NCBI GenBank assembly: GCA_964019425.1 | Contig: OZ025785.1 | Span: forward strand, 62,001-126,000 | Source of the DNA: Flectonema sp. DT1601 | Taxonomy: Eukaryota | Direction: 5' to 3' | DNA: 64,000 bases | Part shown: positions 10,724 through 64,000 of the stretch, piece after piece | Layout of the letters: each line of letters starts with the position of its first letter | Numbering within the stretch: position 1 is the first letter of the stretch | Program-made: the position numbers and the translations under genes | Notes under the pieces: generated by a model | What the model was told of the DNA's origin: nothing | Seen by the model: the letters and a program-made list of their open reading frames with translations, nothing else | The model's database searches: none

Positions 10724-10761
<38 letters not shown>

Positions 10762-30819: not shown

Positions 30820-30890
30820 TATTTTTAAACTGGATGAGTTTCTGGTGATGAAGAATTAATTCAAAGGATACGTAACTTCAATTCAAGAAC
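30820..30890 (-). promoter_or_regulatory. Conserved 5' leader of the LRR genes, probable trans-splice acceptor region
   Basis: ttgaattgaagttacgtatcctttgaattaattcttcatcaccAGaaactcatccAGtttaaaaataATG is nearly identical upstream of all seven copies (also about 34354, 38701, 41405, 43752, 48162 and 50735). The function is inferred. Confidence 0.5.
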
Positions 30891-34353: not shown

Positions 34354-34586
34354 TTTTTTTAACTGGATGAGTTTCTGGTGATGAAGAATTAATTCAAAGG
34401 ATACGTAACTTCAATTGAACAACGTAATTCACATGATAACTGACACCAGAGAACAATCATCGCTACTCACTATGACTGCGGAATTAATTAATTTAAAGTA
34501 ACTATTAGGTTTCGAGAGTAATCCATATACCTCTTACCTCTATTCTATCATCATCAGTTATGGTGTGGAAGTAAGTCAATCAATTA

Positions 34587-39919: not shown

Positions 39920-41404
39920 TCAAAACCGCTCCTTTAAAATCATTCCAACGACATCACTGCAATCTTCCAATCCCTTGAAATCTTTCTCAGTCAGTTTCGT
40001 TTTCCATAAGAATCCATTTCCTATTATAGTCAGCTTCTTCAAACCAGAAACATCGATGTAGGTGAGGGACTCACAGTTACCAATAAAGCAACGGCTAACG
40101 CTCGTAACTTCACTCAAGGAAGACAAATCCACGCTAGTAAGAGACTTTGAATTATGCAAGAATCCGTATCCTATTGTAGTCAGCTTCTTCAAACCGGAAA
40201 GATCGATGGAGGTGAGGGACTCACAGTTTCTAACAAACTCATTGCCAATGCTGGTTACTTCACTCAAGGAAGACAAATCCACGCTAGTCAGAGACCTTGT
40301 ACTATGCAAGAATCCATATCCTATTGTAGTCAACTTCTGAAAACCGGAAACATCGATGGAGGTGAGGGACTCACAGTTTTTACTAAAGTCATCGCCAACA
40401 CTCGTTACTTTACTCAGACCGGATAAATTAACGTGAGTCAGAGACTTCGAGTTATTCAAGAACTTGCTGGGGATGGCCGTCACATTGTGCAAAGAAGTGA
40501 AATCGATTGACGTCAGCGAGTCACAACTGTCTGACAGGAACTCTTGCTCAAATGCAGTGCAAAGGCTGCAGTTGGTGAATGACAACCGACGGATGCAAGA
40601 CGGAAGCATCTCAACACAATCACTAGAAAGGGTGCCTTCATCGTCGATATATTCTGAGGCATCGAAGACACACAACATGTCAGGATTTTGTGTGAACAAA
40701 ATGTCAATTCGAGTACGAAAATGTGAAGTTTTCAACTCCTCCGCAGTCACAAGTCCAGGCCTCTTGTATGTTCTTTTCACAGTACCCCAGTTGTTCGAAT
40801 CTTCCAGCTCACGGAGGATCTCGGCACCCCATGAGGTGTTGTCAAATTGGGATTTGACTTCTTCCTTCGAAGAGTTGGAGAGTCTCGGCCAGTCCAGCAG
40901 CAGAAAGAGTTCCTTCCTGAGTTGGGCTGGGACACCCTCTTCTGTTTCACCCATGCCCAAGTAACCAATTTGAAGTGTGTTGAAATACTCATCCTCGTTC
41001 AGCAGCCGAGGGAAGCAGGTGGACGAGAATACATTCCTCAGGTCATCTTCGACCAATTCCAACTTCCCGTCCCCCTTGAGATCAGCTTTAACAAACCCGA
41101 TATCGGCACACTTCATGTCAGGATGCAAGGAAAGGGTTCCCAGTAATCGCGAGCTTCCTTCCACCAGCTTCGTCGACTCCTTCTCCCTCGCCACCCGGTG
41201 TACTTCCTTGTACGTCGTCAATTCAGTCGCAGCCTCAGCATCCGTCATTCCAACCATGATCTCCTCCGACGATCTGAGAACTTCTGAAAAGCTGTCCATC
41301 AGCGCCCCCGACTCCTCCTTCCGACTCACCACTTCCACCAGCAGCTTCGCCATGAACCTCTGATGGCTCCTCAAAACAGAGGACAGGGAATCGACAGTTG
41401 CTAT
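39920..41404 (-). pseudogene. LRR family copy 4 (7 LRRs, type B); start codon ATG>ATA and a premature stop near the end
   Basis: ATA at 41404 where the paralogues have ATG. CGA>TGA at 39920 removes RNNRI. It could still be translated from Met18 (MAKLL). Confidence 0.75.
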
Positions 41405-41521
41405 TATTTTTAACTGGATGAGTTTCTGGTGATGAAGAATTAATTCAAAAGATACGTAACTTCAATTCAAGAATGAAGGAAACTGCTTGTATTCATTAGA
41501 CAAACGATTCCACATATTCTT

Positions 41522-42330: not shown

Positions 42331-43751
42331 TTATTTAGGAAATTCTTTTTTAACAACAGCACTGCAACCTTCCAATCCCTTAACACCTTTTTTAGTTAGT
42401 TTTGTATCCATTAAGAATCCATATCCTATTGCAGTCACTTTCTTCAAACCGGAAACATCGATGGAGGTGAGGGACTCACAGTGACTAATAAATTGATCGC
42501 CAACACTCGTAACTTCACTCAAGGAAGACAAATCTACGCTAGTCAGACACTTTGAATTATGCAAGAACCAATTTCCTATTGTAGTCAGCTTCTTCAAACC
42601 TGAAACATCGATGGAGGTGAGGGACTCACAGTTACTAATAAAGCGATCGCCAACACTCGTAACTTCACTCAAGGAAGACAAATCCACGCTAGTCAGACAC
42701 TTTGAATTATGCAAGAAACAATTTCCTATTGTAGTCAGCTTCTTCAAACCTGAAACATCGATGGAGGTGAGGGACTCACAGTTACTAATAAAGTGATCGC
42801 CAACACTCGTAACTTCACTCAAGGAAGACAAATCCACGCTAGTCAGACACTTTGAAGTACTCAAGAAACAATTTCCTATTGTAGTCAGCTTCTTCAAACC
42901 GGAAACATCGATGGAGGTGAGGGACTCACAGTTTCTAACAAAGTCGTAGCCAATGCTGGTTACTTTACTCAGACAGGATAAATTAACGTGAGTCAGAGAC
43001 TTCAAGTTGTTCAAGAACTTGCTGGGGATGGCCGTCACATTGTGAAAAGAAGTGAAATCGATTGACGTCAGCGAGTCACAACCGTCTGACAGGAACTCTT
43101 GCTCAAATGCAGTGCAACGGCTGCAGTTGGTGAATGACAACCGACGGATAGAAGACGGAAGCATCTTAACACAATCACCAGAAAGGGTGCCTTCATCGTC
43201 GATATATTCTGAGGCATCGAGGACACACAACATGTCGGGATTTTGTGTGAACAAATTGTCAATTCGAGTACGAAGATGTGAAGTTCTCAACTCCTCCGCA
43301 GTCACAACACGTTCATACCTAGGCCATTTGTGGAGAAGGAGTCGGCGAAGTTGGTGGAAGGAAGCTCGCGATTACTGGGAACCCTTTCCTTGCATCCTGA
43401 CATGAAGTGTGCCGATTTCGGGTTTGTTAAAGCTGATCTCAAGGGGGACGGGAAGTTGGAGCCGGTCGAAGATGACCTGAGGAATGTATTCTCGTCCACC
43501 TGCTTCCCTCGGCTGCTGAACGAGGATGAGTATTTCGAGACAGTTCGAATTGGTTACTTGAGCCTGACTACTTCAGAGGATGGTGTCTCACCCCAACTCA
43601 GGAAGGAACTCTTCCTGTTGCTGGACTGGCCGAGACTCTCCTCCTCGGGGAAGGAAAAAGTAAAATCCGAATTTGACAACACCTCATGGGGTGCCGAGAT
43701 CCTCCGTGAGCTGGAAGATTCGAACAACTTGGGTACTGTGACAGTTGCCAT
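42331..43751 (-). pseudogene. LRR family copy 5 (9 LRRs), N-terminal domain disrupted by an inversion and a deletion
   Basis: The leader and ATG (43751, MATV) are intact, 43332-43740 is inverted, and about 200 bp (codons ~4-72) are missing. The LRR part 42331-43331 is open. Confidence 0.85.
43332..43740 (+). other. Inverted fragment of the LRR-family N-terminal domain (codons ~73-209)
   Basis: The plus strand reads EKESAKLVEGSSRLLG...ELEDSNNLGTV. This is the only piece of the family on the plus strand. Confidence 0.9.
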
Positions 43752-44595
43752 TATTTTTAAACTGGATGAGTTTCTGGTGATGAAGAATTAATTCAAAGGA
43801 TACGTAACTTCAATTCAAGAACGTAATTCACATGATAACTGACACCAGAGAACAATCATCGCTACTCACTATGACTGCGGAATTAATTAATTTAAATACT
43901 TGTATTGCGTGTACTTCATGGAGGGGTGAAACTTTCACAATGTAAAAACAATAACAACTTTAGGTATTAATACAAAAACTAATATCAAAGTATTCGATTG
44001 AATAGTTGTTAATAAAAGAAAAAGTTCGTTGTCTCATTGACCAGAAGACGTTGTCGAATCTGGTAATTCAGGGACCACGTACTATCAGGTTGAGAGTCCA
44101 ATCCGTTACAACTTACACTTAAATAAAATAAAAAGAACAAAACAGTTCGTATTACAGGACTAGTTAGTAGTACACTGCTAGCGGCGTACTCTTGCGTGGA
44201 GGGAGTTAATTGATTTCGAGTGAGCTCATATTGTGAAAACAAAAAGTTATAAAAACACAATTGTTCTGCTGTTCCATAAGCCACTTGCGGAATACGTAGT
44301 TTCAGGAGCCTTAATCTTATACTACTTGTCCCTCTTAGGTCTTCATCAGTAAGTTCTGACGGACTTCACTCCAGTTCTTCAGAATCAGACATTGACAAAT
44401 ATGATTTCGCCAAGACGGGCTGGTATATACTTGGTTTTGATCAGCTGAGTTCCATGTAATGTAAAAACAATAACAACTTTAGGTATTAAAACAAAAAGAA
44501 TCGGCACCTCACTAAATAATTCTCACACTTTGTTTTTCTTTGTGCGCAACCGGACCCCTTAATATTTAAACACTTCCCTAATTTCTTTTAGGAAC

Positions 44596-44814
44596 GCACG
44601 TCAACACCGCAACGGACCTCCACCAGAGTTTCCCCGGCTTCGTCCTATCCAGGCATAGTTCACCATCTTTCGGGTCCCAATAAGTGTACTTTACCTCAAA
44701 TCCTTTTCCAATAAATCGGGATCGGGCTGTGCTACACCCCCAGGGGTTGGCACATAAAGACCCTTTCAGTGCGGCTAATGGGTTTGACACCCTAAACCTT
44801 TGCACACGCGTTAG
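44596..44814 (-). rRNA. Isolated ~220-bp fragment of eukaryotic LSU (28S) rRNA, not a functional gene
   Basis: The minus strand contains GGGACCCGAAAGATGGTGAACTATGCCTG...GAAGCC..GGAAACTCTGGTGGAGG...TGACGTGC, the conserved core after the D3 region. No further rDNA is seen on either side. Confidence 0.85.
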
Positions 44815-45542: not shown

Positions 45543-48161
45543 TTATTTAGGAAATACTTTTTTAACAACAGCACTGCAACCTTCCAATCCCTTAACACTT
45601 TTCTTAGTTAGTTTTGTACCTATTAAGAATCCATATCCTATTGCAGTCACTTTCTTCAAACCGGTAATATCGATGGAGGCGAGGGACTCATTTTTAGTTA
45701 GTTTTGTTTCATACAAGAATCCATCTCCTATTTCAGTCACTTTCCTCAAACCGGAAACATCGATGTAGGTGAGGGACTCACAGTTACTAATAAAGACATC
45801 GCCAATACTCGTTACTTCACTAAAGGAAGACAAATCCACGCTAGTCAGAGACTTTGAATTACGCAAGAATCCACTTCCTATTTCAGTCAGCTTCTTCAAA
45901 CCGGAAACATCGATGGAGGTGAGGGACTCACAGAAACTAATAAAGTGATCGCCAACATTCGTAACTTCACTCAAGGAAGACAAATCCACGCTAGTCAGAG
46001 ACTTTGAATTACGCAAGAATCCACTTCCTATTTCAGTCAGCTTCTTCAAACCGGAAACATCGATGGAGGTGAGGGACTCACAGTAACCAATAAAGTGATC
46101 GCCAACACTCGTTACTTCACTCAAGGAAGACAAATCCACGCTAGTCAGAGACTTTGAACTATGCAAGAATCCACGTCCTATTTCAGTCAGCTTCTTCAAA
46201 CCGGAAACATCGATGGAGGTGAGGGACTCACAGTAACCAATAAAGTGATCGCCAATACTCGTTACTTCACTCAAGGAAGACAAATCCACGGTCAGAGACT
46301 TTGAACTATGCAAGAATCCACGTCCTATTTCAGTCAGCTTCTTCAAACCGGAAACATCGATGGAGGTGAGGGACTCACAGTAACCAATAAAGTGATCGCC
46401 AATACTCGTAACTTCACTCAAGGAAGACAAATCCACGCTAGTCAGAGACTTTGAATTATGCAAGAATCCATCTCCAATTTTAGTCAGCTTCTTCAAACCG
46501 GAAACATCGATGGAGGTGAGGGACTCACAGCGACTAATAAAGACATCGCCAATACTCGTAACTTCACTCAAGGAAGACAAATCCACGCTAGTCAGAGACT
46601 TTGAATTATTCAAGAATCCATTTCCTATTTCAGTCAGCTTCTTCAAACCGGAAACATCGATGGAGGTGAGAGACTCACAGTTATTAATAAAGTGATCGCC
46701 AACACTCGTAACTTCACTCAAGGAAGACAAATCCACGCTAGTCAGAGACTTTGAATTACGCAAGAATCCATTTCCTATTTCAGTCAGCTTCTTCAAACCG
46801 GAAACATCGATGGAGGTGAGGGACTCACAGTAACCAATAAAGTGATCGCCAATACTCGTAACTTCACTCAAGGAAGACAAATCCACGCTAGTCAGAGACT
46901 TTGAATAATGCAAGAATCCATATCCTATTTCAGTCAGCTTCTTCAAACCGGAAACATCGATGGAGGTGAGAGACTCACAGTTATTAATAAAGTGATCGCC
47001 AACACTCGTAACTTCACTCAAGGAAGACACATCCACGCTAGTCAGACACTTTGAGTATCGCAAGAATCCACTTCCTATTGCAGTCAGCTTCTGAAAACCG
47101 GAAACATCGATGGAGGTGAGGGACTTACAGTTACTAATAAAGTCATCGCCAACACTCGTTACTTCACTCAGACCGGATAAATTAACGTGAGTCAGAGACT
47201 TCGAGTTGTTCAAGAACTTGCTGGGGATGGCCGTCACATTGTGAAAAGTAGTGAAATCGATTGACGTCAGCGAGTCACAACTGTCTGACAGAAACTCTTG
47301 CTCAAAAGCAGTGCAACGGCTGCAGTTGGTGAATGACAACCGACGGATAGAAGACGGAAGCATCTCAACACAATCACTAGAAAGGGTGCCTTCATCGTCG
47401 ATATATTCTGAGGAATCGAAGACACACAACATGTCGGGATTTTGTGCGAACAAAATGTCAATTCGAGTACGAATATGTGAAGTTCTCAACTCCTCCGCAG
47501 TCACAACACGTTCAGGCCATTTGTATGTTCTTTTCACAGTACCCCAGTTGTTCGAATCTTCCAGCTCACGGAGGATCTCAGCACCCCATGAGGTGTTGTC
47601 AAATTGGGATTTGACTTCTTCCTTCGACGAGTGGGAGAGTCTCGGCCAGTCCAGCAGCAAGAAGAGTTCCTTCCTGAGTTGGGCTGAGACACCATCCTCT
47701 GTTTCACCCATGCCCAAGTAACCAATTCGAACTGTCTCGAAATACTCATCCTCGTTCAGCAGCCGAGGGAAGCAGGTGGACGAGAATACATTCCTCAGGT
47801 CATCTTCGACCAACTCCAACTTCCCGTCCCCCTTGAGATCAGCTTTAACAAACCCGATATCGTCACACTTCATGTCAGGATGCAAGGAAAGGGTTCCCAG
47901 TAATCGCGAGCTTCCTTCCACCAGCTTCGCCGACTCCTTCTCCCTCGCCACCCGGTGTACTTCCTTGTACGTCGTCAATTCAGTCACAGCCTCAGCATCC
48001 GTCATTCCAACCATGATCTCCTCCGACGATCTGAGAACGTCAGAAAAGCTGTCCATCAGCGCCCCCGACTCCTCCTTCCGACTCACCATTTCCACCAGCA
48101 GCTTCGCCATGAACCTCTGATGGCTCCTCAAAACAGAGGACAGGGAATCGATAGTTGTCAT
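45543..48161 (-). CDS. LRR family copy 6 (872 aa, 22 LRRs including a doubled C-terminal capping repeat)
   Basis: Intact ORF with one 3-nt in-frame deletion (LTVDL). It ends ETKLTKNES-LASIDI...GTKLTKKSVKGLEGCSAVVKKVFPK. Confidence 0.9.
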   Translation of the reverse strand: MTTIDSLSSVLRSHQRFMAKLLVEMVSRKEESGALMDSFSDVLRSSEEIMVGMTDAEAVTELTTYKEVHRVAREKESAKLVEGSSRLLGTLSLHPDMKCDDIGFVKADLKGDGKLELVEDDLRNVFSSTCFPRLLNEDEYFETVRIGYLGMGETEDGVSAQLRKELFLLLDWPRLSHSSKEEVKSQFDNTSWGAEILRELEDSNNWGTVKRTYKWPERVVTAEELRTSHIRTRIDILFAQNPDMLCVFDSSEYIDDEGTLSSDCVEMLPSSIRRLSFTNCSRCTAFEQEFLSDSCDSLTSIDFTTFHNVTAIPSKFLNNSKSLTHVNLSGLSEVTSVGDDFISNCKSLTSIDVSGFQKLTAIGSGFLRYSKCLTSVDVSSLSEVTSVGDHFINNCESLTSIDVSGLKKLTEIGYGFLHYSKSLTSVDLSSLSEVTSIGDHFIGYCESLTSIDVSGLKKLTEIGNGFLRNSKSLTSVDLSSLSEVTSVGDHFINNCESLTSIDVSGLKKLTEIGNGFLNNSKSLTSVDLSSLSEVTSIGDVFISRCESLTSIDVSGLKKLTKIGDGFLHNSKSLTSVDLSSLSEVTSIGDHFIGYCESLTSIDVSGLKKLTEIGRGFLHSSKSLTVDLSSLSEVTSIGDHFIGYCESLTSIDVSGLKKLTEIGRGFLHSSKSLTSVDLSSLSEVTSVGDHFIGYCESLTSIDVSGLKKLTEIGSGFLRNSKSLTSVDLSSLSEVTNVGDHFISFCESLTSIDVSGLKKLTEIGSGFLRNSKSLTSVDLSSFSEVTSIGDVFISNCESLTYIDVSGLRKVTEIGDGFLYETKLTKNESLASIDITGLKKVTAIGYGFLIGTKLTKKSVKGLEGCSAVVKKVFPK

Positions 48162-49231
48162 TATTTTTAAACTGGATGAGTTTCTGGTGATGAAGAATTA
48201 ATTCAAAGGATGCGTAACTTCAATTCAAGAACGTAATTCACATGATAACTGACACCAGAGAACAATCATCGCTACTCACTATGACTGCGGAATTAATTAA
48301 TTTAAATACTTGTATTGCGTGTACTTCATGGAGGGGTGAAACTTTCACAATGTAAAAACAATAACAACTTTAGGTATTAATACAAAAACTAATATCAAAG
48401 TATTCGATTGAATAGTTGTTAATAAAAGAAAAAGTTCGTTGTCTCATTGACCAGAAGACGTTGTCGAATCTGGTAATTCAGGGACCACGTACTATCAGGT
48501 TGAGAGTCCAATCCGTTACAACTTACACTTAAATAAAATAAAAAGAACAAAACAGTTCGTATTACAGGACTAGTTAGTAGTACACTGCTTTAATGTAAAA
48601 ACAATAACAGCTTTAGGTATTAAAACAAAAAGAATCGGCAGCTCACTAAATAATTCTCACACTGTGCGCAACCGGACCCCTTAATATGTAAACACTTCTC
48701 TAAATTCTTTTAGGAACGCACGTATTTCACTCTACCCCAGATATTTAAACACTACCCCAGTTCTTTCTTTTTTTTCATGACCTTACATATTTGCGTTCAA
48801 CCTTCCAAGCACGTCTCGAAGGTTCGTCAGCAGGATTCTCCTTCGACGATCCATTCGAATGTGAGATTTCGGAGAGTCACACGACAACAGGTCGGGTTAC
48901 ACCCGACTTGTTCCTGCAAATAGCTGAAATCAATTCCGTTTAAATAAATATGGTCTGCAACAAAATAATGGATTGAAAGGTTACTACTTTAGTACTGACG
49001 TCATTATTGATCTTCGGAATTGAATCTTAACGTCTTCTGATGTTGTCCAAGTTCAATTTATGTAATTTATCACCAACACTGAACACCAACAGAAGGGATT
49101 CAAATGTTTTATTAAAACTGACTGCTCTGAATTTCATTACAGACATCAGCCGTCTTCCTTAAGAAGAGGAAGTAAAAAGATATTAACACCCCAGTCAAGG
49201 AATATAATTACTTACTAATGGCTCAAGGTAA

Positions 49232-50734
49232 TTATATCCGATTGTTTCGAAACCGCTCCTTCAAAATCATTCCAACGACATCACTGCAATCTTCCAATCC
49301 CTTGAAATCTTTCTCAGTCAGTTTTGTATTCTCTAAGAAAGATCTCCCTATTGTAGTCACTTTTTGAAAACTGGAAATATCGATAGAGGTGAGGGACTCG
49401 CAGTTACTAATAAAGCAATCGCCAACACTCGTAACTTCACTCAGGGAAGACAAATCCACGCTAGTCAGAGAACTTGAGTATTGCAAGAATCCATCTCCTA
49501 TTTCAGTCAGCTTCTTCAAACCTGAAACATCGATGGAGGTGAGGGACTCACAGTTTCTAACAAACTCATTGCCAATGCTTGTTACTTCACTCAAGGAAGA
49601 CAAATCCACGCTAGTCAGAGACATTGAATTATGCAAGAATCTACTTCCTATTGTAGTCAGTTTCTTCAAACCTGACACATCGATGGAGGTGAGGGACTCA
49701 CAGTTATTAATAAAGTAATCGCCAACACTCGTTACTTCACTCAGACCGGATAAATTAACGTGAGTCAGAGACTTCGAGTTGTTCAAGAACGTGCTGGGGA
49801 TGGCCGTCACATTGTGAAAAGAAGTGAAATCGATTGACGTCAGCGAGTCACAACTATCTGACAGGAACTCTTGCTCAAAAGCAAAGCAACGGCTGCAGTT
49901 GGTGAATGACAACCGACGGAGAGAAGACGGAAGCATCTCAATACAATCACTAGAAAGGGTGCCTTCATCGTCGATATATTCTGAGGCATCGAGGACACAC
50001 AACATGTCGGGATTTAGTCCGAACAAAATGTCAATTCGAGTACGAAGATGTGAAGTTCTCAACTCCTCCGCAGTCACAACACGTTCAGACCATTTGTATG
50101 TTCTTTTCACAGTACCCCAGTTGTTCGAATCTTCCAGCTCACGGAGGATCTCAGCACCCCATGAGGTGTTGTCAAATTGGGATTTGACTTCTTCCTTCGA
50201 CGAGTGAGAGAGTCTTGGCCAGTCCAGCAGCAGGAAGAGTTCCTTCCTGAGTTGGGCTGGGACACCCTCTTCTGTTTCACCCATGCCCAAGTAACCAATT
50301 TGAAGTGTGTTGAAATACTCATCCTCGTTCAGCAGCCGAGGGAAGCAGGTGGACGAGAATACATTCCTCAGGTCATCTTCGACCAACTCCAACTTCCCGT
50401 CTCCCTTGAGATCAGCTTTAACAAACCCGATATCGGCACACTTCATGTCAGGATGCAAGGAAAGGGTTCCCAGTAATCGCGAGCTTCCTTCCACCAACTT
50501 CGCCGACTCCTTCTCCCTCGCCACCCGGTGTACTTCCTTGTACGTCGTCAATTCAGTCGCAGCCTCAGCATCCGTCATTCCAACCATGATCTCCTCCGAC
50601 GATCTGAGAACTTCTGAAAAGCTGTCCATCAGCGCCCCCGACTCCTCCTTCCAACTCACTACTTCCACCAGCAGCTTCGCCATGAACCTCTGATGGCTCC
50701 TCAAAACAGAGGACAGGGAATCGACAGTTGCCAT
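49232..50734 (-). CDS. LRR family copy 7 (500 aa, 7 LRRs, type B)
   Basis: Intact ORF with the same N-terminal domain, ends GMILKERFRNNRI. Confidence 0.9.
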   Translation of the reverse strand: MATVDSLSSVLRSHQRFMAKLLVEVVSWKEESGALMDSFSEVLRSSEEIMVGMTDAEAATELTTYKEVHRVAREKESAKLVEGSSRLLGTLSLHPDMKCADIGFVKADLKGDGKLELVEDDLRNVFSSTCFPRLLNEDEYFNTLQIGYLGMGETEEGVPAQLRKELFLLLDWPRLSHSSKEEVKSQFDNTSWGAEILRELEDSNNWGTVKRTYKWSERVVTAEELRTSHLRTRIDILFGLNPDMLCVLDASEYIDDEGTLSSDCIEMLPSSLRRLSFTNCSRCFAFEQEFLSDSCDSLTSIDFTSFHNVTAIPSTFLNNSKSLTHVNLSGLSEVTSVGDYFINNCESLTSIDVSGLKKLTTIGSRFLHNSMSLTSVDLSSLSEVTSIGNEFVRNCESLTSIDVSGLKKLTEIGDGFLQYSSSLTSVDLSSLSEVTSVGDCFISNCESLTSIDISSFQKVTTIGRSFLENTKLTEKDFKGLEDCSDVVGMILKERFRNNRI

Positions 50735-51460
50735 TATTTTTAACTGGATGAGTTTCTGGTGATGAAGAATTAATTCAAAGGATACGTAACTTCAATTCGA
50801 GAACTTTTTCTCAAAAAATCATGAAAATCATGAAAATCATTAAGATAGTGGGTGAGCTGATACATTTCCCAGCTGCTTGAAGTAGTCTCGTGACTACTGA
50901 TTCATCAAAATGTCAATTCAAGTACGATGATGTTGTAGTGCGATACGAAGATGATTGACTACTGCTATTGATGGTCTATCCCTAAGCACTGACAAAGAAC
51001 CACAAAAACTCAATCTTGAATTCATCAATCATCTAGAAGAAGGTTTACTCAGAGGAGAATGTGGATGGGCTTCACTCTATTATCGCAGACCATCTTTATA
51101 TGAAGCAAACCCGCTTTCTGCGAGAATTACAACAAATATTCCTCGAAGAGCATCAAACACTAGAACCCGACAATAATGAACATAAGCCATCCCCAGACGG
51201 CTGGTTTTCTCTTAGCTTCTCGGAATGGCAAGCAAACAACAGCTCAACAGGGATATCCGACGATTTGTCGACTCCGGAGCTTTCGATTATCCACAACATG
51301 TTTGCCGCCTTATCTTAACAACAAAACAAACACACGAATGTCGTATCTCGTATCTCATTCGATTCTATAATTATTCGACACATTCAAAAGGTAAAACAGA
51401 TCAACGATTATCTTTTCATCAATTCGACAGACTTCGTCAAACGTTCGGAATCTAACTTTC

Positions 51461-53571: not shown

Positions 53572-56157
53572 TTAATTAGATTCAAACATCCTACAAGACG
53601 TCGGTGGAGTATCTCCCAAATAGTATTGCAATTCCCACCGGCCGTCTCTCTCACGCCACACTCGAAGGTTATCAGACGCCGTTATTATAACATTGCCATC
53701 AGATGAAACAATGACAGCTTGTACCTTCTTAGAATGGCCTTCTAATGTGTGTTTTACTATACCCTTAGAAGACTGCAAAGTGATCATTTTTTCATTACAA
53801 ACTACGAAGTCACCGTTTCGTAGACTACTCGGGAGGATAGAAAGATAAGAAGAAAGAGAACATCCGATGGCTACACCTGTTGCTGCTTCCCATTGAAAAA
53901 ATTCACCATTGAAAACGCCAACAAGAAATTTTCCGCAATCCGAGAACGTGACATTCTTAACCTGCTGGGATATCGTTAACTTGGATTTCAACGTGTCTGG
54001 TGAGAGAAGCAATACATTCTCGGGAGTGGCACATGCTACGTTCTCTGTTGTGCATGCGATGTCCACAATTTCGATGTCCACAATTTCCTTTGCTAAAGAC
54101 CTGCTCGTCGGTTGCAAGGTTTCGTTGAAGACTTCCAGTTTGTGTTCAGCCCCAACGAATATAGACAACGATTTGCCATCGCGGCGGACAGCCATGCATG
54201 AATAAGAAATATTAATTTCATTCCTTGTAGCGACTACATTCCAATGAGTTTTTACGAATACTTTGATCTCACTTCGTGTCATAGTGACGAGGTACAATTT
54301 AGAGAGAGAGAGTGAGACAACATAATTATCTTTTGAATTACTGCTGGCCCGCAGACGAACGTGTTCAGTACCATTTTGCAAGTTCCAAATTATGACAAGG
54401 CCACTTTCACAGCCACTTGCCACTAAATCTGAATAAATTGAAACATGAGTGACATTCTGCTTGTGCCCTTGGTGGTGTACTGGTGAATAACCATCTTCAC
54501 GTGTGTTCCACAATCGAACAGTGTGATCATCGTCGCTGTATCCCGAGGTGGTAATATATTCACCATTGCTTGAGTATCTTATTGACATTACTTTACATCC
54601 ATGTCCATGAAGTTTTCTGTCGGGCTGCTTCTTTAGCAAACTAATTATTTCAACTTCTTTCAAACCTCCCAACGCCACGTAGTTCCCGCAAGTCGAGAGT
54701 GCCAGCCCACCGACATTTCCTGGAAGTTTCATCCGTTGTTCGTACTTCTCATTAACTTTACTCCAGATGTGAATCATGTTTTCGCCATCTTTCCAAGCAA
54801 AATCGATTTTAGCGTTGTTAACCCCCATTGGGAGAACAGCAATTTGCTGCGTATGGCTTGCGATAGATTGTAACAACTCATACGACTTCTCCATACGTCT
54901 CCATATCACGATTTCTTTGCCCTGTACACAAACTAAGTCACCTGCTGGAGTGTATGCTATACTCTTTGCCGCTCCGTTTACTCCCTCATGGTTTCTCCAT
55001 AAGGGTTCTTCTTGATCACCGTTCTTAACAACATCCCACACCATGACAGACGGCTTGCCTCCGTACTTTAGAGCAACTGCCAAGTGCGCATCATCAGGTG
55101 AGAAGACTAGGTCGTTAAGTAAGATATCCCCCTCTTCATGTTTAAGACAATTATACTTCCCTTCTTGGAATGGACTCCAGATAACCACTCTCGCAGAATG
55201 ATTAGTACCTGCATCAGAGCAAGTAGCAAGTAGAATGTTTTTATCATCTTTCGCACTGTTACAAGCAATTCCACTTATAAACAACGGATGGTACTCACTC
55301 AGATTTATCTTCTTAACAACTTTCCCAGTAGCTGATGAGTACAATCCGACATGATTATTGAAAGCGGCGACGACGTATTCGCTGGATGACGTGAATATCG
55401 ATTTCACTTTTGCATCCACACTAATCGGAGGTAGCCTTATGTCGAACGTCGGGTTATCAATTTCTGCATACTTAAAATTGCAACGCATCATAAGGCACCT
55501 CTTGAAGTCACAATTGATGAGAAACGATCCTTCAAAATTCACTTCAACTAAACAACCACCACAAAAACTCACATCCTCCAGGCGCAGACCGGACAAATCT
55601 TCACCAAATAACGTGCAACCTGAAGAGACTAACAACGACAATGCGTTGCTAGCGATGGTACGTTTCTTCTCAACTTCCTTCTTAACTTCCCTCTCAACTT
55701 CGGATGTCTTAACCAGAGGAAGTAATTTCTTACTCAACTCGTCGTGGTTTCCGGTACTTTGTTGAATGAGTTTGTGCTGTTCTAAGATTCCTGGCTGGGT
55801 TTTCGAAAAGCGTAATTTCGACAGCATCTCCCTCAACTCATCTTCACCACACTTGGCAATGTGACTGGCAATTAGATATTCAGCCAACGTTTTGTGATGA
55901 AATCTTACAACACCCATCTCGTAGTACACGGGCAGAAATATCACCAGTCTCTCGAACTCGGCTATCTCTTTGTCGTCTTTGAAATAGTTTGACGCCTTTC
56001 CTCCCCAGTGCCCTTGTTGCAGCATACGACACGCCAGCATCTCTGCCATGCGTTTCACATCCGCAGATTTTATTAGGTTTTCTTTCTTTTCATCTTCCAA
56101 CTGTTTCTTAATAAATCCATCGATAAACGCTTTGTAAACCGTGGATTTACTTGTCAC
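53572..56157 (-). CDS. Last exon of an NLR-like gene: winged helix + pentapeptide repeats + WD40 repeats
   Basis: Phase-0 acceptor aacaaacAG|GTG. Motifs: FHHKTLAEYLIA, ASNALSLLV, EDLSGLRLEDVSFCGGCLVEVNFEGSFL, and WD40 units such as GHGCKVMSIRYSSNGEYITT...TVRLWN, GHKQNVT...VIIWN and GHSKKVQAV...LRVW. Confidence 0.88.
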   Translation of the reverse strand: MTSKSTVYKAFIDGFIKKQLEDEKKENLIKSADVKRMAEMLACRMLQQGHWGGKASNYFKDDKEIAEFERLVIFLPVYYEMGVVRFHHKTLAEYLIASHIAKCGEDELREMLSKLRFSKTQPGILEQHKLIQQSTGNHDELSKKLLPLVKTSEVEREVKKEVEKKRTIASNALSLLVSSGCTLFGEDLSGLRLEDVSFCGGCLVEVNFEGSFLINCDFKRCLMMRCNFKYAEIDNPTFDIRLPPISVDAKVKSIFTSSSEYVVAAFNNHVGLYSSATGKVVKKINLSEYHPLFISGIACNSAKDDKNILLATCSDAGTNHSARVVIWSPFQEGKYNCLKHEEGDILLNDLVFSPDDAHLAVALKYGGKPSVMVWDVVKNGDQEEPLWRNHEGVNGAAKSIAYTPAGDLVCVQGKEIVIWRRMEKSYELLQSIASHTQQIAVLPMGVNNAKIDFAWKDGENMIHIWSKVNEKYEQRMKLPGNVGGLALSTCGNYVALGGLKEVEIISLLKKQPDRKLHGHGCKVMSIRYSSNGEYITTSGYSDDDHTVRLWNTREDGYSPVHHQGHKQNVTHVSIYSDLVASGCESGLVIIWNLQNGTEHVRLRASSNSKDNYVVSLSLSKLYLVTMTRSEIKVFVKTHWNVVATRNEINISYSCMAVRRDGKSLSIFVGAEHKLEVFNETLQPTSRSLAKEIVDIEIVDIACTTENVACATPENVLLLSPDTLKSKLTISQQVKNVTFSDCGKFLVGVFNGEFFQWEAATGVAIGCSLSSYLSILPSSLRNGDFVVCNEKMITLQSSKGIVKHTLEGHSKKVQAVIVSSDGNVIITASDNLRVWRERDGRWELQYYLGDTPPTSCRMFESN

Positions 56158-56230
56158 CTGTTTGTTGATTTTGACCTTACTAACTTCCCTGTATTGATCA
56201 AAGGAACTACCAGTATTTAATTACACATAC

Positions 56231-56998
56231 CCCTTCGTGATGAGTCGTGGTCGCCATGTAGAGGAGTTGTGGGCTGCTGAGCTCACACCAAACTCTTCGT
56301 TGCTTCAGCTTCTCAATATTCTTTTGCACATCTTTGTTGATCTTTATCATTTTCTCACCAAAATCGTCTCTCTGTTTGGTGCTAAAGGGACGCAGATAGT
56401 AAGAATTGGCATCATCACCAAGGAGATCTTTTGGAGTGAGTCCTCGTCGGATGAAATTTTCAGTTCTGCTCGTGAGGATAACCCACGACTCTGATAACAA
56501 CAACGGGTTGAGTTTCAGTAAGTCGGTACCGGAGTCACCGACAACGTTTGCAGTTCCTTCATCAAAGGAATCAAGAACTATAACAACAGTGTAGGTGAAT
56601 AGTTGTTTGATATCACAATCAGGTGGAAGCATATTCTCCACGATGTACTTGTCGATAGCATGCGGCTCAAATGCATTTCCGACACTTCCCATCGACACAA
56701 ATACTGGGAAGTATTTCTCATTCAATTCTCTAATTAGTTTGACCCCCGCAGAAGTCTTCCCCCCTCCAGCCTCTGACTGCAGTACGAGTGGGGGTCGGTC
56801 GTCACTCTCAAGAAGGTCTTTAATCAATTTAGTTAAGCTGATGTCTTCAATTCCCTCTCTGCTGGTGACGCATTTGCACAAAGTCGGAACAAGTTTGCAC
56901 AAAGTCGGATCGACGTAACAACGTTCGAATTTTGCAAAAACGTATGTCGCAAGTGTGCACCACACCTCGCGCATTTGTTTCAACTGCTCCGATCTGGC
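56231..56998 (-). CDS. NACHT/STAND NTPase exon
   Basis: Walker A LVLQSEAGGGKT, Walker B VIVLDSFDE, sensor VILTSR, LRPFS and SPQLL. Donor GGG|GTATGT at 56230 joins in frame to 56157. A candidate phase-0 acceptor is ccacAG|GCC at 56999/56998. Confidence 0.85.
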
Positions 56999-57179
56999 CT
57001 GTGGTTTTTTATTACTCTCTTTCCCACAAGAACGACAACGGGCATACTCGTATAAAACATAAAGAACGTTCCTATAAGTATCCCTAAATGAAGGGGGTGA
57101 AAAACAAGAAAAAAAGTGAAGTCAAATGTTTCTCACCCAACATCACTCGCAAGTGAAAACAAAAGGCTAAGTTACAAAC

Positions 57180-59042
57180 TTTAACGAAATCATTAATCCG
57201 TTCGGTGCTTTGCAAGAAAATGATGTCACAGCTGCATCCAAAAATTCGTAACGTGCTGGGATTGTACACCCACAAGACTCGGAAAGTGGCATCATAGCTG
57301 AACAATGACTCTTCTTCCTTCTCTTTGACAGATAGCGGAGCAATATTCGCGGCAAACCCTAAGACAACGAGCAAAGAACAACGTTCTTTCCTCATAAAAG
57401 CATTTGTGCCTTCCACTTTCCGTGAAGTTGAAAAGAAATGATTAAACGACTTTATCTCACCTACCTCGAAATCCTTTGCAGAAAATCGGCTGTCTCCCTT
57501 CCACAGTAAGCGGTGCTCTGGAGGAAACCTCAGCAATGCTTTTCGTAAGTGATAAATAAACGGTTTGAGGTATTCGACGTATTTTTTATTTTCAGGATCG
57601 GTTTTCTCGTCGTTTCGTGCGACGTTGTACATTGATTCTTTGATCTTAGAAGTTCCGTAAAACACTGGCGAGGTGTAACAAACGGTAGCAATCAACATCT
57701 CCAAGGCATCTGTTGGGTCGCTGCCTATCAGACTAGCCATCCAAGGCTCAAAGTCACTCTTTAATTCTAACTTTTCTTTGAATTTGTTTACTTTTTCTTG
57801 AATTTGATCAACTACTTTGTTAAGTTTGCCATCTGCCCACTTAAGAGGAGACGACGGTGAAGCGATTCGCTTTTCCTTGCCGGTAAACAACTTTATGAAT
57901 TCCTTTTTCTTGGGAATGTAACCGTTGCTGAGAAAGTGATACGCGCCAGCATCTTCTGTATCTCTATCTGAGTTGCATTGATGTTCGTCATCCCCATCGG
58001 AACTCTCCGTTTCCCAGGTTTCAATAAGTTCTTTCAGCCTTTCGATGTTTTCTGTATACGATTTCGACAGTTCCCTCAACACCTCTACTGACAACCCTCC
58101 TTGAGCTCCGTTGACTAAAGGCGTTTCATTCGATGAGTTTGTTTTTACTTTAGATTGGTCATCCATGTTGTCAATCAGTAATCGGGTCATTTCATTATGA
58201 CCACACCAACAAGATCCATGAAGACTGTTTGATCCTTCGGAAGTTGTCATCGTCAAGTTGCTCTTTACGGTGTCAGAGCTCTGAATCCATTTCTCCATCA
58301 AGTTATGATTACCACTTCTGGCAACAATGTAAATCATAGGCCACGCAGACTTCCCAAAACATCTGCCGCTGGGGATCTCCATTTTCTTAAAATCTTCCCA
58401 GGAAACATATTCAATAAGGGAAGGCATCATTCTGTAACAGGAGTTTTGTTTATGAGTGTCCGCAGTGTTCTTTAGAACTCTGCGGAGTGCTTGTGTGCAA
58501 TTGGTTGCTTTAGCATCATCACTCAGCTCGCTTAGAAGTATCTGAAGACATTTGCAATCATCATTCTCCAAACAGAGGATCACAGTTGAGATGTTGATCT
58601 TATTCTCAGTGTGTGTATTTATTATCTTCTCCAGAACCATTTCCATCAACTTCGGGAAGTATCTGACTACGATATTTAATAATTCTTTCATAGTCTCGCT
58701 GTTATCCTTAAACTTATCAATCGCCCCATCATGTCTACCATACTTCGCAATGTGACTGGCAATTAGATATTCAGCCAACGTTTTGTGATGAAATCTTACA
58801 ACACCCATCTCGTAGTACACGGGCAGAAATATCACCAGTCTCTCGAACTCGGCTATCTCTTTGTCGTCTTTGAAATAACTCGATGGCGTTCCTTCCCAGT
58901 GCCCTTGTTGCAGCATACGACACGCCAGCATCTCTGCCATGCGTTTCACATCCGCAGATTTTATTAGTTTCTCATTTTCATCTTCCAACTGTTTCGCAAT
59001 GCCGTCGATAAACGCTTTGTAAACCGTGGATTTACTTGTCAC
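57180..59042 (-). CDS. Exon encoding winged helix + ankyrin repeats + R-S-E-type ADP-ribosyltransferase domain
   Basis: Second FHHKTLAEYL segment. Ankyrins: IYIVARSGNHNLME, GSNSLHGSCWCGHNEMTRLLI, NETPL. ART: CYTS...LRKALLRFP...LWKG...FFSTS...IAPLS..EKEEESLF...TFRV. Candidate phase-0 donor AAA|GTTTGT at 57179. The first exon is uncertain (possibly 59203-59132). Confidence 0.8.
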
Positions 59043-59538
59043 CTGTTTGTTGATTTTGACCTTACTAACTTCCCTGTATTGATCAAAGATTAATTACCTT
59101 CTTCAAAAATAGATTTCGTATTTGCACACACCTCGCCTGTGTGATTCCACTGCTCCAAACCAACCTGTTTATCTTTCATAGCAACATTGAAGTGCTCTGT
59201 CATGTCACTTTCCCGTAGAAATACTGTAATATGAATTAAAAAGAACAGCAGTTTAAACAAAAAGATGCAGTCCACCAGACAAATGCCACATCGGTGACGA
59301 GCTTTCTTTTCCTTCTGTTCCTTAGTATTTGACTTATTTCATCCTCCAGTCATTTTTAACCCTAGACGGTATTAAGCAAAATAATCAGTGTTAAAAAGAT
59401 AAAACAAAACAAATTGCTGCACCAACTCCCAGTTTGACGTAGGAGATGGCTATCTCCTGTGTGAGATTACAATCACAAAGAATGAGACAGAGAGCATACT
59501 GTTCTTAGTCTACATTCTAACACGGAGGCAGCACTTAC

Positions 59539-62500
59539 TTAAACACTTCTAGGGTCTACATATCCAACTCCTCCCTTTGCTTCTCCCGGAGACATAACAT
59601 CACTCACACGCATACCTTCTAATATACGTTTAGCGATATTGGTTGCAATATCTTTTGCGAGTTTTTCAAAAGCCTCCTCTGATACTCCGGGTTTTTCAGA
59701 TGTGTTGAAGTCAAGAAGAGTATACTTACCGCCGGTGTCTTTCGCAATTTTTCGGAAATCATTATACGGTTCTTTCAGAGCATTAATCTTATGCAGAGCA
59801 TTAGTGTGGACGGGGATATTGGCGCTCTTCAGTTTTTGGACTTCAGCTTCAAAATCGGTACAATATCTCATGAACGATCGTTCTTTTTTCCAGTATGCTT
59901 CACCCTTAATTTCCTCACGCATTTTCTTCACTTTATTCTTTGGGTGGGGGGGAGCATCACCAGTAATCATAACAGCACTACGAGAATCCTTTTTAAATTC
60001 TTCATTCGCATAGGCAAGAGCAACTTCGATTGCCTCTTCGCCGTCACGGAGTTTAAAATGTGTTGAATCACCGCTTCCAATATGAATATTTTCTAAGAAA
60101 TCTTTTAGTTTGTCTGAATCGCTGGAATCTTTCCATCCCGAGATTGTAATTAAATGATCAGCATCTTTATCATAGTTACGATAGCCGACGATGTTTATTT
60201 CGAATCCCCTTTCGATACCTTGCATTTCAAGAATCAGTCCTATACCACGGAGTAACTGATCGAGAGTTTCTCTTACAGCATCAAATACAGGTTTCATTGA
60301 TGCCGTGGCGTCTATGCACAGCATTAATCGAAATGGGTTTTTGTCGGCGTTTGTCTTGACTATACATCTATTTATATTCAGAATGTAGTCTTGAATTTCT
60401 TCCACTTGAGCTTTGTGTTGTTCACTGCCAGGTGGAAGATCTTTCAGTTTTTTAAGGTTCTCTATAAAGTTCTTCCCCTCATCGTGATGACTTGTAGTTC
60501 TTTGCGCGTCCGTGGTTGCGTCAAGGAACTTCTTATCGTGGTGTTCGTCTCTTATTTCTTTTATGGCTTTGCGAACTTCGTCTATACGACGTTTGTCATC
60601 GGATGTGCTACCAGCTTCTTTCAATTGATCAATTTCATCCTCAGACATGTTGAAGTGATTACCTTTACGCAAGGAGTTCACATCAAATATGAGAGCCCAG
60701 CTACCTGGTTCTCCTTGGCGACCTACTCGACCTCTGGCTTGTGCCTCATCAGCCTCTGTGGGACTTAAGTATGTTTGGATTAGTAAGACTCCGTTGACTC
60801 TGGGTACTCTGACATCAGTTGTTTTTGGATCAATTCCTCTGGAGAATGGGTGAGTCATTGTTGATAATGTATTCATTTTAGGAATCTTATTAATCCCAGG
60901 ATGTTGTGAATTAATCTCACTATTCTGTGAGTCACCAATTGTTGAATTATCGTTTAGAGTATTGTGCTCAAACTTTCGAGAATCCAATTCATCAATTCGA
61001 CTGCACTTTTGGAAATCTCTTCGGTCCGAGTCCTTATCAAATAAAATACAGATTGGTCTTTTAGGATCCTCACTCGTTGTCTGTTGTAATATGAAGTCAA
61101 TGATTGCGCCGTGAAATTCCATTTTGTTTGCATCACCGCCAGTGTCTGTAACTTGCACTGTGGGCACGTTAATTTGTTTGTGCTCGTCACGGAAAGCAGA
61201 AGGCATGTAAGACTTGTGCACATCTTTAAGGGTTTCTTTAATCAAGCCGATTTCACTCTCGTGCATAGAGCTCAGAGTTCCCGTGAGCGCCAAGACAACA
61301 TCGTATGCTTCAACTATGCGTGCATATGCGATCTTAGCCCCAATAATATTTAGTACGATGTAGTGATTTCTTTCTTCCGTGGAAATGCTGCCTTCACTGT
61401 GAGCTGCAAAGGCGTGCCACATGGTCTTGTAGCTGTGTCGCTTCGTGTAAGATTTTCCGTGATTGTCTTCGTAGCAAATCCTCCGTTCCTTGCTTTCTGG
61501 ATCAATACCAACAAAGTAGGACTCTTTTGTATATGTGAATACATCCCTTAGCATGAGTCTCACGCAGCTCATCATTAATTTCTCCCAACGAGGATTATAT
61601 TTGCTAATTTCCCCAACACACTTCTTATACTCATCAGATTCAAATATCATTGTTTGATAATCAAATAAAGATTTTTGTGAACGAGACTTCTTCCATATCA
61701 GTTCAGCTAATGCCGTTAGTGACTCAAGTTTGAGAGTTTCCAGAGCAACGTACTCATTGGCGTAGTTTTCAAAATTCCAAAGTGTGTCCATTTCATCAAT
61801 AATTGCGATGGTCTTACCGGAAGTTATCCTATCACCTGTTTTGAGTTTATAATATTCTTTTAAACTTCGACTCCCTCACTACTGAAGTATGGTCATGGTG
61901 AGCAGCAAAAGATAATTTTAGTTTCCGTTGAAAAAGTACATACCTGAAACTGACTCTGGAGCAGCTCCCTTGGTAATAGCACAGGCGAGTCTCATTCGCA
62001 TGCTGCTTGAACCAGAGAGTATCCGTTCGCAGTGGTTTTCGTAGGTGTCCCAAGTGATCTTTCCACCTATACGAAGCTCCTCAAAAAGACGACGAAATCC
62101 CTCGTAATCACGTTTACAGAGATAATCTGAATAACACATGCAGTGAATAGTGTTTCCAAGAATAGCAAGCACTGCAGCAGCTATGGCTATAACAATAGAC
62201 TTCCCTTCACCAGTTAAGATTTCTAGGAAATGGTGTTTTAAGTTATCAATATTATACTCATGTGAGAGGTATGTTTCCGGATCAGATGTTTTGATATCAA
62301 GCGCCAGCATTCTGAAAACTGCGAGAACTTGAAGGACGTTGGGAGTGACAATAGCTGATTCTCTTCCACTTCCTTCAAGTACGGCTGTGTCTGTTGATCG
62401 AATAGACCATAAGGTGAATAGAGAAGTACATAGTTCCAGTACATCTCCATTTGTTACTTTAATCTCATAGTCTTGCATTTTTTTCACAAAATCTTTCAGA

Positions 62501-64000
62501 TCATCAACCCTTCCGCTTTTCACTCTTTGTTTCCAATTAACCTCAAATATTGTGTACATTGTTTTGAGACGTTGCTTATTAACAGGGGAATTCTTTGTGT
62601 CTTCGAATAACAAATTTAGTGCCTTTTCAATCGTCATGTGCTTCGTTTTATTATTTCGATCCTGAGTGAGAACTGCTTGGAAGACACTTCCATGGTCATT
62701 TTGTAATCCCTTAACATAGCTGGCTAAAGTATCATCTGTGTTGATATCAGTAAGGTAGTCCCTTACCATTGATAAACTAGAGAGTGTAGATGTTGTTGAC
62801 GATTCTGTTGATTGACGTAGTTCTGAGAACACGCCTGCAATGCTCTCCGTAACTGATATCTGATCTCCAAGCACTTGTAGTGTCAACAATCTGAGTGCAA
62901 GTGTCTTAGCAGCACTCTCCCTTTCTTTACATTTATCAAACGTTTTTACCCATTTAGTAGTTTGTTCCACAATCTTATCGGATAAGGTTTTCAGACATTC
63001 TCGTTTACTATCTGCGATGATTGTTTTCATCCTGATATCTATTTGAACATCGCTAGGCACGGCGTCATCATAGAATTTCAATAATGTACCGAGGGGTGCA
63101 AAAGTGGAGATCAGTTTTTTTTGATTTTCCTCATCTCCTACCACTACATGGTTCACTGAAACCTCGTTAACAATCCTAGTGATGACTTGATTTGTTGTGT
63201 CTTTCAATTCCTTAAAATAAGATTCGATGGCTGATGTCGCTGATGTCTTCCTCGTGAGTGTGTCGTTGTTGGAATCGACTAAGCAACGAATGCTGGTCAG
63301 AGAATTCCACACATCAATATAATACTCGTGTCCTCCCTTGTTAGTTTCTGTCCACCTTTTCTTGATTTCCAGAAGAGCAGAGTCTATACCGTCACCAAGT
63401 CCCTTGACGGTTTCCTGAAGTTGCTGTGTGGCATTGCTATGTGGAAGCCACGCAAAATCGCTCATTCTGTCGCGTAGACGACTACCATAAAACACTTTAA
63501 TAGATTTATCATTATTCTGAATGGCTTTAATTGATTCTAATAATGTTTTATCCGGAAGCTTTTGACACGCGGTCACGCAGGCTTCGTTCAACTTCTTAAA
63601 TTTCAACAAAGCTGTATCTAACTCCTCTTCTACTCTTGACACCGTATCCAGCCCCCCAGACAATAAGATATCTTTTAAAAACGGAATAAGTTCATGGACA
63701 GCATTGCAATCAGACTCGGAAATATCAGATAACCCCTCGTTATAAGATCGTAACTTGTCGGACAGATCCCCGGAATGTTTTTTAAAATGTTCATCCGCAC
63801 TCGTTACCCAGCTGCTTATGGTATTTTTAACTTTCTCTTGCTGTTCTTTGGGGGCATCAAAGCCCTCGACAACGGGCATAAAATCGTTCCAAGATTTCTT
63901 AAAACTGACTAAGGCAGAAACACTGCTGGATGGGTGTTTCCAATTTTTTACAAACAGTTCCGCACTATTCTCAAGTGGAGGTAATATTTCACTGAGGTAC
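59539..64000 (-). CDS. Large SecA-like SF2 ATPase + vWA-domain protein (5' end outside window)
   Basis: The frame is open to 64000, and intron 61943-61836 (G|GTATGT...aaacAG|GT) joins the two ORFs. SecA-like motifs: EILTGEGKS, YSDYLCKRD, IAIIDEMD, LALTGT, FSRGID and QARGRVGRQGEPGS. vWA motifs: MIDAS-like LCIDATASM, VGYRNYD, EEAIEVAL and ITGDAPPH. Confidence 0.88.

Follow-up and report, generated by a model that had tools for sequence, protein, structure and literature searches.

A predicted NLR-like gene from the diplonemid Flectonema sp. DT1601 with an ADP-ribosyltransferase domain ahead of its NACHT domain

On the minus strand of a 64,000-nucleotide (nt) stretch of the Flectonema sp. DT1601 genome (GenBank assembly GCA_964019425.1, contig OZ025785.1, positions 62,001 to 126,000; hereafter the window), three long open reading frames (ORFs) lie in series between positions 59203 and 53572, and their domain contents follow on from one another in a matching order. 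We report that these ORFs are probably one gene of four predicted exons, which would encode an NLR-like STAND protein with an ankyrin (Ank) and ADP-ribosyltransferase (ART) effector placed ahead of a NACHT domain, a winged helix (WH), a pentapeptide-repeat beta-helix and WD40 propellers. The genus Flectonema belongs to the Diplonemidae (Euglenozoa). In plants, animals, fungi and bacteria alike, NLR/STAND receptors that carry an enzymatic effector have a central place in immunity. The ORFs and their domains, the fold of the ART, the state of its catalytic motifs, an internal duplication of the winged helix and the unbroken occurrence of the same architecture in relatives were observed directly and are described below.

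Relatives were sought with HMMER, using the ART segment (window positions 57896-57180) against 1.84 billion representative proteins. At E ≤ 1e-3, the search returned 14 proteins, including the window's own product. Pfam was run on 12 of the 13 others; P0013 (6012 amino acids [aa]) was too long and was left out of the scan and the alignments. P0007, an ORF of 1920 aa from a Flectonema neradi Trinity transcript (EukProt, "ORF type:complete"), carries Ank (residues 194-289), ART (404-595), NACHT (816-967), pentapeptide (1236-1269) and WD40 domains. P0008 has the same order in an uninterrupted single ORF of 1763 aa on a 345,763-nt ENA contig. P0009 (821 aa; Ank-ART-NACHT) and P0016 are also Flectonema neradi Trinity transcript ORFs from EukProt, while Pfam read P0010 as Ank-NACHT (its ART match came from the HMMER search) and P0019 as ART-NACHT. 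For the remaining seven relatives, only beta-propeller families were among the 25 Pfam matches listed, and their alignment contains the ART motifs, a GxGK[ST] P-loop and DS[FL]DE throughout. Several divergent paralogues occur per assembly: one contig carries P0008 and P0011, a second carries P0010 and P0012, and Flectonema neradi has at least three genes. A first-pass annotation, made from the letters of the window, had read the order of domains as WH-ankyrin-ART-NACHT-WH-pentapeptide-WD40; the part from ankyrin to WD40 stands and is unbroken in P0007 and P0008, whereas the N-terminal winged helix is not ancestral to the family.

When the spliced model was compared with P0008, a single BLASTP alignment (model 419-1739 / 372-1736; 34% identity, 678 bits) crossed both junctions, the ART-NACHT junction at model residues 634/635 and the second at 890/891. 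Single alignments over the ART-NACHT junction were also obtained with P0007 (model 133-856) and P0009 (model 417-890). All three proteins are gapless across the intron-1 junction, and P0008 and P0007 are collinear across intron 2. Judged from these alignments, the collinear match to a continuous ORF of 1763 aa is beyond chance. The ORF of P0009 stops at the alignment column of the window's intron 2, which could reflect a retained intron at a position conserved in Flectonema.

Word-based searches found a second record, a 34,730-nt ENA contig, that carries the same three ORFs: P0002 (654 aa, 72% identity to ORF A), P0006 (344 aa, 79% identity to ORF B) and P0003 (894 aa, 82% identity to ORF C, ending at the same C-terminal residue). 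This record may be either another species or an old paralogue. Past the intron-1 donor, the likeness of P0002 falls to 5/31 residues and the frame closes at unequal distances, 8 residues on in the relative and 32 in the window; the likeness of P0006 starts at the intron-1 acceptor. A search for NACHT among longer proteins returned P0007 only, and a near-length search returned only the window's own product and P0006. When the ART alignment was used to scan 185,579 prokaryote species genomes by pattern, a weak search that used two peptide patterns only, no relative was confirmed, and two scans of metagenome contigs confirmed no DNA relative.

The first-pass annotation had joined the three ORFs with two GT-AG introns in phase 0 (57179-56999 and 56230-56158), and both are present exactly as written there, with an open joined frame. 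A scripted join was open throughout in both models of the 5' end (1751 or 1762 aa). Between ORF A and ORF B, however, the script found 63 GT..AG pairs that give an open in-frame join, so an open join is by itself no evidence, and support for the ART-NACHT splice comes entirely from comparison with relatives. Pairs that delete conserved ART strands, or that add residues lacking from relatives, were set aside; an alternative intron-1 donor at 57185 may be used instead and would give a product two residues shorter. With the intron-1 donor and acceptor given in Table 1, exon 2 ends in ...NDFVK and exon 3 starts with ARSEQL.... A 24-nt mini-exon (57071-57048), raised as a possibility by the same annotation, was rejected as unnecessary, because the family alignment is gapless here and leaves no gap to fill. 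A methionine eight codons past the acceptor aligns with isoleucine or valine of the homologues in the family alignment; it appears to occupy an internal hydrophobic position and does not look like a start codon. Short canonical introns are found elsewhere in the window, one of 71 nt (GTATGA..TAG, 10766-10696) that restores the P4-ATPase motif GATGIEDKLQ and one of 108 nt (GTATGT..CAG, 61943-61836, phase 1) that connects both ORFs of the neighbouring gene upstream.

At the 5' end, the reading frame of the ATG at 59203 closes after 37 codons and the following ORF lies in another frame, so a start at this ATG requires a third intron. The single frame from 59203 put forward in the first-pass annotation is thus open, at 1751 or 1762 aa, only with a 5' intron that was missing from its list. 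The MTEH start is common to P0002, whose ORF begins likewise and is uninterrupted at the point of this intron (intron 0). Two phase-0 donors fit the acceptor at 59043/59042: one at 59131 (GTGTGT, in the context GAG/GTGTGT), giving an 89-nt intron and 1762 aa in total, and one at 59164 (GTTGGT), giving a 122-nt intron and 1751 aa. The donor at 59131 is preferred on sequence grounds, because it resembles the intron-2 donor region in a DNA alignment and because it keeps K-Q-V-G-L-E-Q, which resembles R-Q-Y-C-Y-E-Q of P0002. A phase-1 donor at 59097 (G/GTAATT) was rejected, as it reads into a stop in the next exon.

Table 1. Features of the predicted NLR-like gene (window positions; all on the minus strand)
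Feature	Positions	Strand	Description
Predicted exon 1	59132..59203	-	ATG at 59203, 24 codons; shorter alternative ends at 59165
Predicted intron 0	59043..59131	-	89 nt, GTGTGT...CAG; last 46 nt identical to the end of intron 2
ORF A, ankyrin and ART	57084..59093	-	669 aa stop to stop
Repeat copy 1	58729..59088	-	46 nt of intron 3' end and N-terminal WH' (last HD1-type helix, winged helix); RFHHKTLAEY at 58796-58767
Ankyrin repeats	58062..58328	-	Pfam Ank_2, residues 256-344 of the 669-aa ORF
ART domain to end of exon 2	57180..57896	-	Helical N-terminal part and beta core
Predicted intron 1 (ART / NACHT)	56999..57179	-	181 nt, GTTTGT...CAG, phase 0
ORF B, NACHT	56207..57121	-	304 aa stop to stop
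Exon 3, NACHT NTPase	56231..56998	-	Walker A at 56776-56753, Walker B at 56578-56558
Predicted intron 2	56158..56230	-	73 nt, GTATGT...CAG, phase 0
ORF C, pentapeptide and WD40	53572..56220	-	882 aa stop to stop
Repeat copy 2	55838..56203	-	End of intron 2, post-NACHT helix and winged helix; RFHHKTLAEY at 55905-55876
Pentapeptide-repeat beta-helix	55456..55614	-	Pfam Pentapeptide, 21.3 bits (cut-off 20.2)
WD40 beta-propeller region	53605..55269	-	Pfam WD40, 71.5 bits (cut-off 27), many propeller families; residues ~318-872 of the 882-aa ORF
Stop codon	53572..53574	-	C-terminus at the same place in P0003

The ART was modelled with AlphaFold2 (AF2) from a 14-sequence alignment (pLDDT 84.7, pTM 0.82). 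In a Foldseek search of the PDB, the model had 110 matches at E ≤ 1e-3, and the top matches listed were ARTs without exception. The best was the Vis toxin (4xzj; E 9.7e-10, template modelling [TM] score 0.56), and others were the Tre1 toxin (6drh), XopAI, C3 exoenzymes, ExoS/ExoT, SpvB and rat ART2.2. On the strength of this model, the domain belongs by fold to the R-S-E clade of ARTs, which bears out the first-pass annotation in a comparison that it had itself suggested. The nearest clusters in the ESM Atlas were also ART families (score 0.97), with a recognition value (2175) under the tool's usual bar. A sequence search of solved structures with the ART segment gave chance-level matches only.

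That the ART keeps S-T-S and E-x-E and has lysine in place of the usual arginine had already been noticed, and the residues were located at 57431-57423 (STS), 57317-57309 (E-x-E) and 57500-57498 (a single AAG codon for lysine, in LLWKGD). G134, S156, S158, E194 and E196 are invariant in the family alignment, and S-x-S and E-x-E are found in 14/14 sequences. Position 133 is arginine in all 13 relatives (12/12 in the family alignment, plus P0002) and lysine here only. By this comparison, the lysine is a private, derived change of the present copy. In R-S-E ARTs of the cholera, pertussis and C3 types, a change from arginine to lysine at the catalytic site strongly lowers activity. Because the lysine is private and such a change has this effect, the enzyme of the present copy is likely to be weakened, much weaker than those of its relatives and not typical of the family. 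Outside the lysine, the gene shows no decay.

In the NACHT exon, the variant Walker A motif SEAGGGKT reported in the first-pass annotation is real, with serine replacing the first glycine of the usual G-x4-GK[ST]. This subtype, which lacks the first glycine, is common to the closest relatives P0007, P0008 and P0009 (QSDAGEGKT, QAEAGGGKS and QADGGGGKT), and more distant members have GxGGxGKT. Walker B reads VLDSFDE, and D-S-[FL]-D-E is found in 11/12 homologues, with E-S-L-D-E in P0010. Both Walker motifs are kept in 12/12 aligned homologues, and the winged-helix motif F-x-H-x-x-x-x-E-[YF] is kept in the 10 that reach that region. A sequence search of solved structures with the NACHT exon gave chance-level matches only. 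Just upstream of the P-loop in exon 3 (56860-56920), there is a 14-residue insertion relative to P0006 that looks like a local tandem duplication of P-T-L-C-K.

Residues 1-280 of exon 4 were modelled with AF2 (pLDDT 84.9) as helices, a winged-helix hairpin with F-x-H, more helices and a regular beta-helix. Residues 31-102 form helices and a beta hairpin, and regular short strands at residues 182-234 make up the pentapeptide beta-helix. Foldseek matched this model to NLRC4 (8fw2_A, E 7.6e-5), NAIP5-NLRC4 and NLRP3 with a low TM score (0.36), and also to cyanobacterial Rfr-type pentapeptide proteins (e.g., 2f3l and 6uv7). The labels WH and pentapeptide are supported by the model.

The N-terminal winged helix (WH') is the product of an internal duplication. 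Direct-repeat families D1 and D2 were found with 93% and 99% identity, and the two repeat copies (Table 1) are identical in 335/358 columns, with 6 gap columns and a perfect run of 131 nt, and the final 46 nt of intron 2 fall within the repeat. In P0008 and P0007, the only match to model residues 16-112 is the post-NACHT region (880-979 and 1020-1138, respectively). A WH' is absent from other members of the family and present in P0002, where its first 25 residues differ and the ORF is continuous from the shared MTEH start; because P0002 carries a copy too, WH' is not an assembly artefact. By sequence, WH' is not an ancestral domain of the family; it was copied, in this lineage specifically, from the winged helix that follows NACHT. 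The window's WH' is identical to its own post-NACHT WH at 93/102 residues and to the WH' of the relative at 83/106, and the post-NACHT WH is identical between window and relative at 101/102. We infer from these figures that the duplication predates the split of the two records and was followed by gene conversion in the window's lineage. Such conversion likely overwrote WH' in its 5' part and, in doing so, likely brought intron sequence to the gene's 5' end. Whether WH' might act as a second lock on the NTPase, or as a self-mimic, is a matter of speculation.

A number of points weigh against the reading given here. The four-exon structure at this locus is a prediction, as is the additional 5' intron, and the intron-1 donor (GTTTGT) is unlike the GTATG(T/A) of three clearer introns. 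Three Pfam scores lie just below cut-off, namely Ank_2 (26.2 bits; cut-off 27.3), NACHT PF05729 (26.5; 26.7) and the NAD:arginine ADP-ribosyltransferase family PF01129 (21.2; 22.3; NAD, nicotinamide adenine dinucleotide). Among the relatives, Ank_2 passes in P0008 (43.7) and P0010 (92.8), NACHT passes in P0007 (37.4), P0008 (28.7), P0009 (40.5) and P0019 (41.4) and fails in P0010 (21.4), and PF01129 passes in P0009 (24.6) and fails in P0007 (21.8) and P0019 (21.5). The ART and NACHT calls are thus marginal in the present copy alone and become firm only through the relatives and fold prediction. The PADLOC-DB v2 defence models matched the three exon products with 0 families at E ≤ 0.01. Lysine at the site of the catalytic arginine speaks against strong enzyme activity in the present copy, and the AAG codon could be an assembly error or a rare allele. 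The sensor, oligomerisation, target and biological role are all proposed by analogy. Euglenozoans are generally described as trans-splicing every mRNA, and the AG at 56999 is followed by an in-frame ATG at 56974 that could serve a separate NACHT mRNA.

This last point leads to a reading with two genes, in which a WH'-Ank-ART mRNA would end at the stop at 57084 and a separate trans-spliced mRNA would encode NACHT-WH-pentapeptide-WD40 from the ATG at 56974, with products that might still cooperate. The large ORFs of the window all share one strand, and a diplonemid is the nearest named relative, which fits organisms with polycistronic trans-splicing; the in-frame methionine past the acceptor is kept in P0006, and in the output of gene callers each piece is a protein of its own (P0001, P0005 and P0004). 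Unbroken homologues, however, two of them transcripts, span the junction in single alignments. The methionine position, isoleucine or valine in the homologues, falls within a conserved helix-like stretch across 12 of them, and the eight residues before it align too. The tails past the donor, moreover, are unrelated and unequal in length (8 and 32 residues), and only ~110 nt separate stop and start. We give a two-gene arrangement little credence. A single gene with a dead or decaying ART overlaps with our own reading and, while unlikely, has the most in its favour among the alternatives. Here, the present copy would be a neofunctionalised or degenerating paralogue, its lysine-bearing ART a scaffold or an NAD sensor, and its 5' end might have been damaged by the conversion tract. 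Arginine at position 133 in 13/13 relatives and the crippling effect of its replacement by lysine in R-S-E ARTs would agree with this, as would the start-codon frame, which is broken by converted intron sequence absent from P0002. The three long ORFs are nonetheless intact across ~1750 codons, and relative to the second record, the ART core (90/118 residues, 76%) is as conserved as the ankyrin part (74%) and NACHT (79%). S-x-S and E-x-E are also intact, and a usable pair of phase-0 donor and acceptor is available at the 5' end.

A further possibility is that the protein has no receptor role in immunity or cell death and is instead a housekeeping signalling scaffold with regulated ADP-ribosylation, e.g., in cytoskeletal or vesicle control. 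The post-NACHT winged helix is more alike between the two records than is typical of fast-evolving immune genes, and the animal NACHT-WD40 proteins TEP1 and NWD1 are not classical pathogen sensors, according to parts of a preprint (bioRxiv 10.64898/2026.09.21.753143). Against this, both the several divergent paralogues per assembly and the best matches of the effector fold, which are toxins, would be typical of conflict systems, and a housekeeping role strikes us as improbable. One four-exon gene for an NLR-like protein, with an ART that is likely weakened in the present copy, remains the reading that we prefer.

If the protein works as its architecture suggests, the WD40/pentapeptide end would bind a trigger and the NACHT domain would exchange nucleotide and oligomerise. 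Once clustered, the Ank-ART modules would either modify a cellular target by ADP-ribosylation or use up NAD, with defence or cell death as the output. The ligand-gated, ADP-ribosylating or NAD-consuming receptor of the first-pass annotation is likewise inferred from the architecture. The target residue is likely to be arginine, because of the E-x-E motif and because the best structural matches, Vis and Tre1, are directed at arginine. A much broader proposal, which we regard as distinctly unlikely, is that protists of the diplonemid type possess an NLR-like system for immunity or cell death, with an arginine ADP-ribosyltransferase as executioner. In that proposal, the copied winged-helix "lock" ahead of the effector would be a second intramolecular lock or a self-mimic, kept near-identical by gene conversion that moved an intron to a new site, an intron gain caught in the act.

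The design appears to be new, combining an NLR layout and a novel effector chemistry within a eukaryotic supergroup for which no earlier description was found. In the titles, abstracts and few passages of the literature that were searched, no NLR-like gene was described in Euglenozoa and no NACHT protein was described with an R-S-E ART. The passages seen of four sources treat ARTs as effectors of conflict systems in general and do not mention an ART-NACHT fusion (PMC8195603, PMC7159879, PMC7955679, and bioRxiv 10.64898/2026.09.21.753143). Abstracts of published papers describe diplonemids as highly abundant marine heterotrophs. If our reading is true, ADP-ribosylation would be added to the effector chemistry of NLRs, beside NAD cleavage by TIR domains, pore formation and caspase recruitment, and diplonemid defence or cell death would become easier to approach. 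The locus also offers two natural variants for comparison, namely the lysine form next to an arginine-bearing relative and the duplicated winged helix together with the converted intron.

All 22 stop-to-stop ORFs of at least 200 aa in the window are on the minus strand, which fits one long unidirectional gene cluster. The upstream neighbour (59539-63999, minus strand) stops 336 nt ahead of the ATG of the NLR-like gene. One of its ORFs (61921-63999) runs off the end of the window and has a SecA DEAD-like ATPase domain; the predicted 108-nt intron joins this ORF to one of 750 aa with a weak VWA_2 match (23.2 bits; cut-off 27), an unusual pairing. Between 28117 and 50791 (minus strand) lies a tandem series of seven long leucine-rich repeat (LRR) ORFs (28120-30855, 32848-34410, 36925-38850, 39923-41461, 42334-43371, 45546-48197 and 49235-50791). 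Their repeats match BspA-type LRR_5, LRR_8 and RPS2-like LRR, and their N-terminal 200-350 residues are without a Pfam match. The series may be a second expanded receptor-like family near the NLR-like gene. Between the LRR genes, a fragment of eukaryotic large-subunit (LSU) rRNA (44546-44814, minus strand; Rfam model positions 675-954 of 3401, 94 bits) could be an rRNA-derived insert or a pseudogene. A P4-type phospholipid flippase gene is found at 9554-12804 (minus strand), and its one intron, the 71-nt intron mentioned above, contains a run of ~32 T.

Among known systems, the nearest are the family members P0007, P0008 and P0009, which share with the window (34-47% identity) the order Ank-ART-NACHT(-WH-pentapeptide-WD40), a Walker A of the form Q-[SA]-[ED]-x-G-x-G-K-[ST], DSFDE, S-x-S and E-x-E. 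Unlike the window, they keep the catalytic arginine and lack the N-terminal WH'; P0008 has no introns at the window's sites, and P0007 has an insert of ~200 aa ahead of NACHT. R-S-E ARTs (Vis 4xzj, Tre1 6drh, C3, ExoS/ExoT, SpvB and ART2.2; PF01129/PF03496) resemble the window's domain in fold (TM score 0.49-0.56) and have S-x-S and E-x-E in the expected strands. Identity to them is just 12-19%, however, and the ART is here an internal module of a predicted cytoplasmic STAND protein, not a secreted toxin or ecto-enzyme, with lysine for arginine. NLRC4, NAIP5 and NLRP3 are alike in the fold of the helix that follows the nucleotide-binding domain and of the winged helix, with the FxH motif kept. 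They differ in that the NACHT exon has no detectable sequence match to solved NLRs, that the window's repeats are WD40 and pentapeptide, not LRR, and that the TM score is as low as given above. In the bacterial bNACHT/Avs proteins, the overall STAND layout is the same as in the window's protein, and the N-terminal effectors vary. TEP1 and NWD1/2, which were compared by domain content only, similarly combine NACHT with WD40, and plant TIR-NB-LRR and animal TeTIR-NACHT-WD40 receptors have an NAD-using enzymatic effector immediately ahead of the STAND NTPase and repeats at the C-terminus, as described in parts of the same preprint (bioRxiv 10.64898/2026.09.21.753143). In contrast to these TIR-type receptors, the effector of the window has an ART fold, not TIR, and the protein adds an ankyrin module and a pentapeptide beta-helix.

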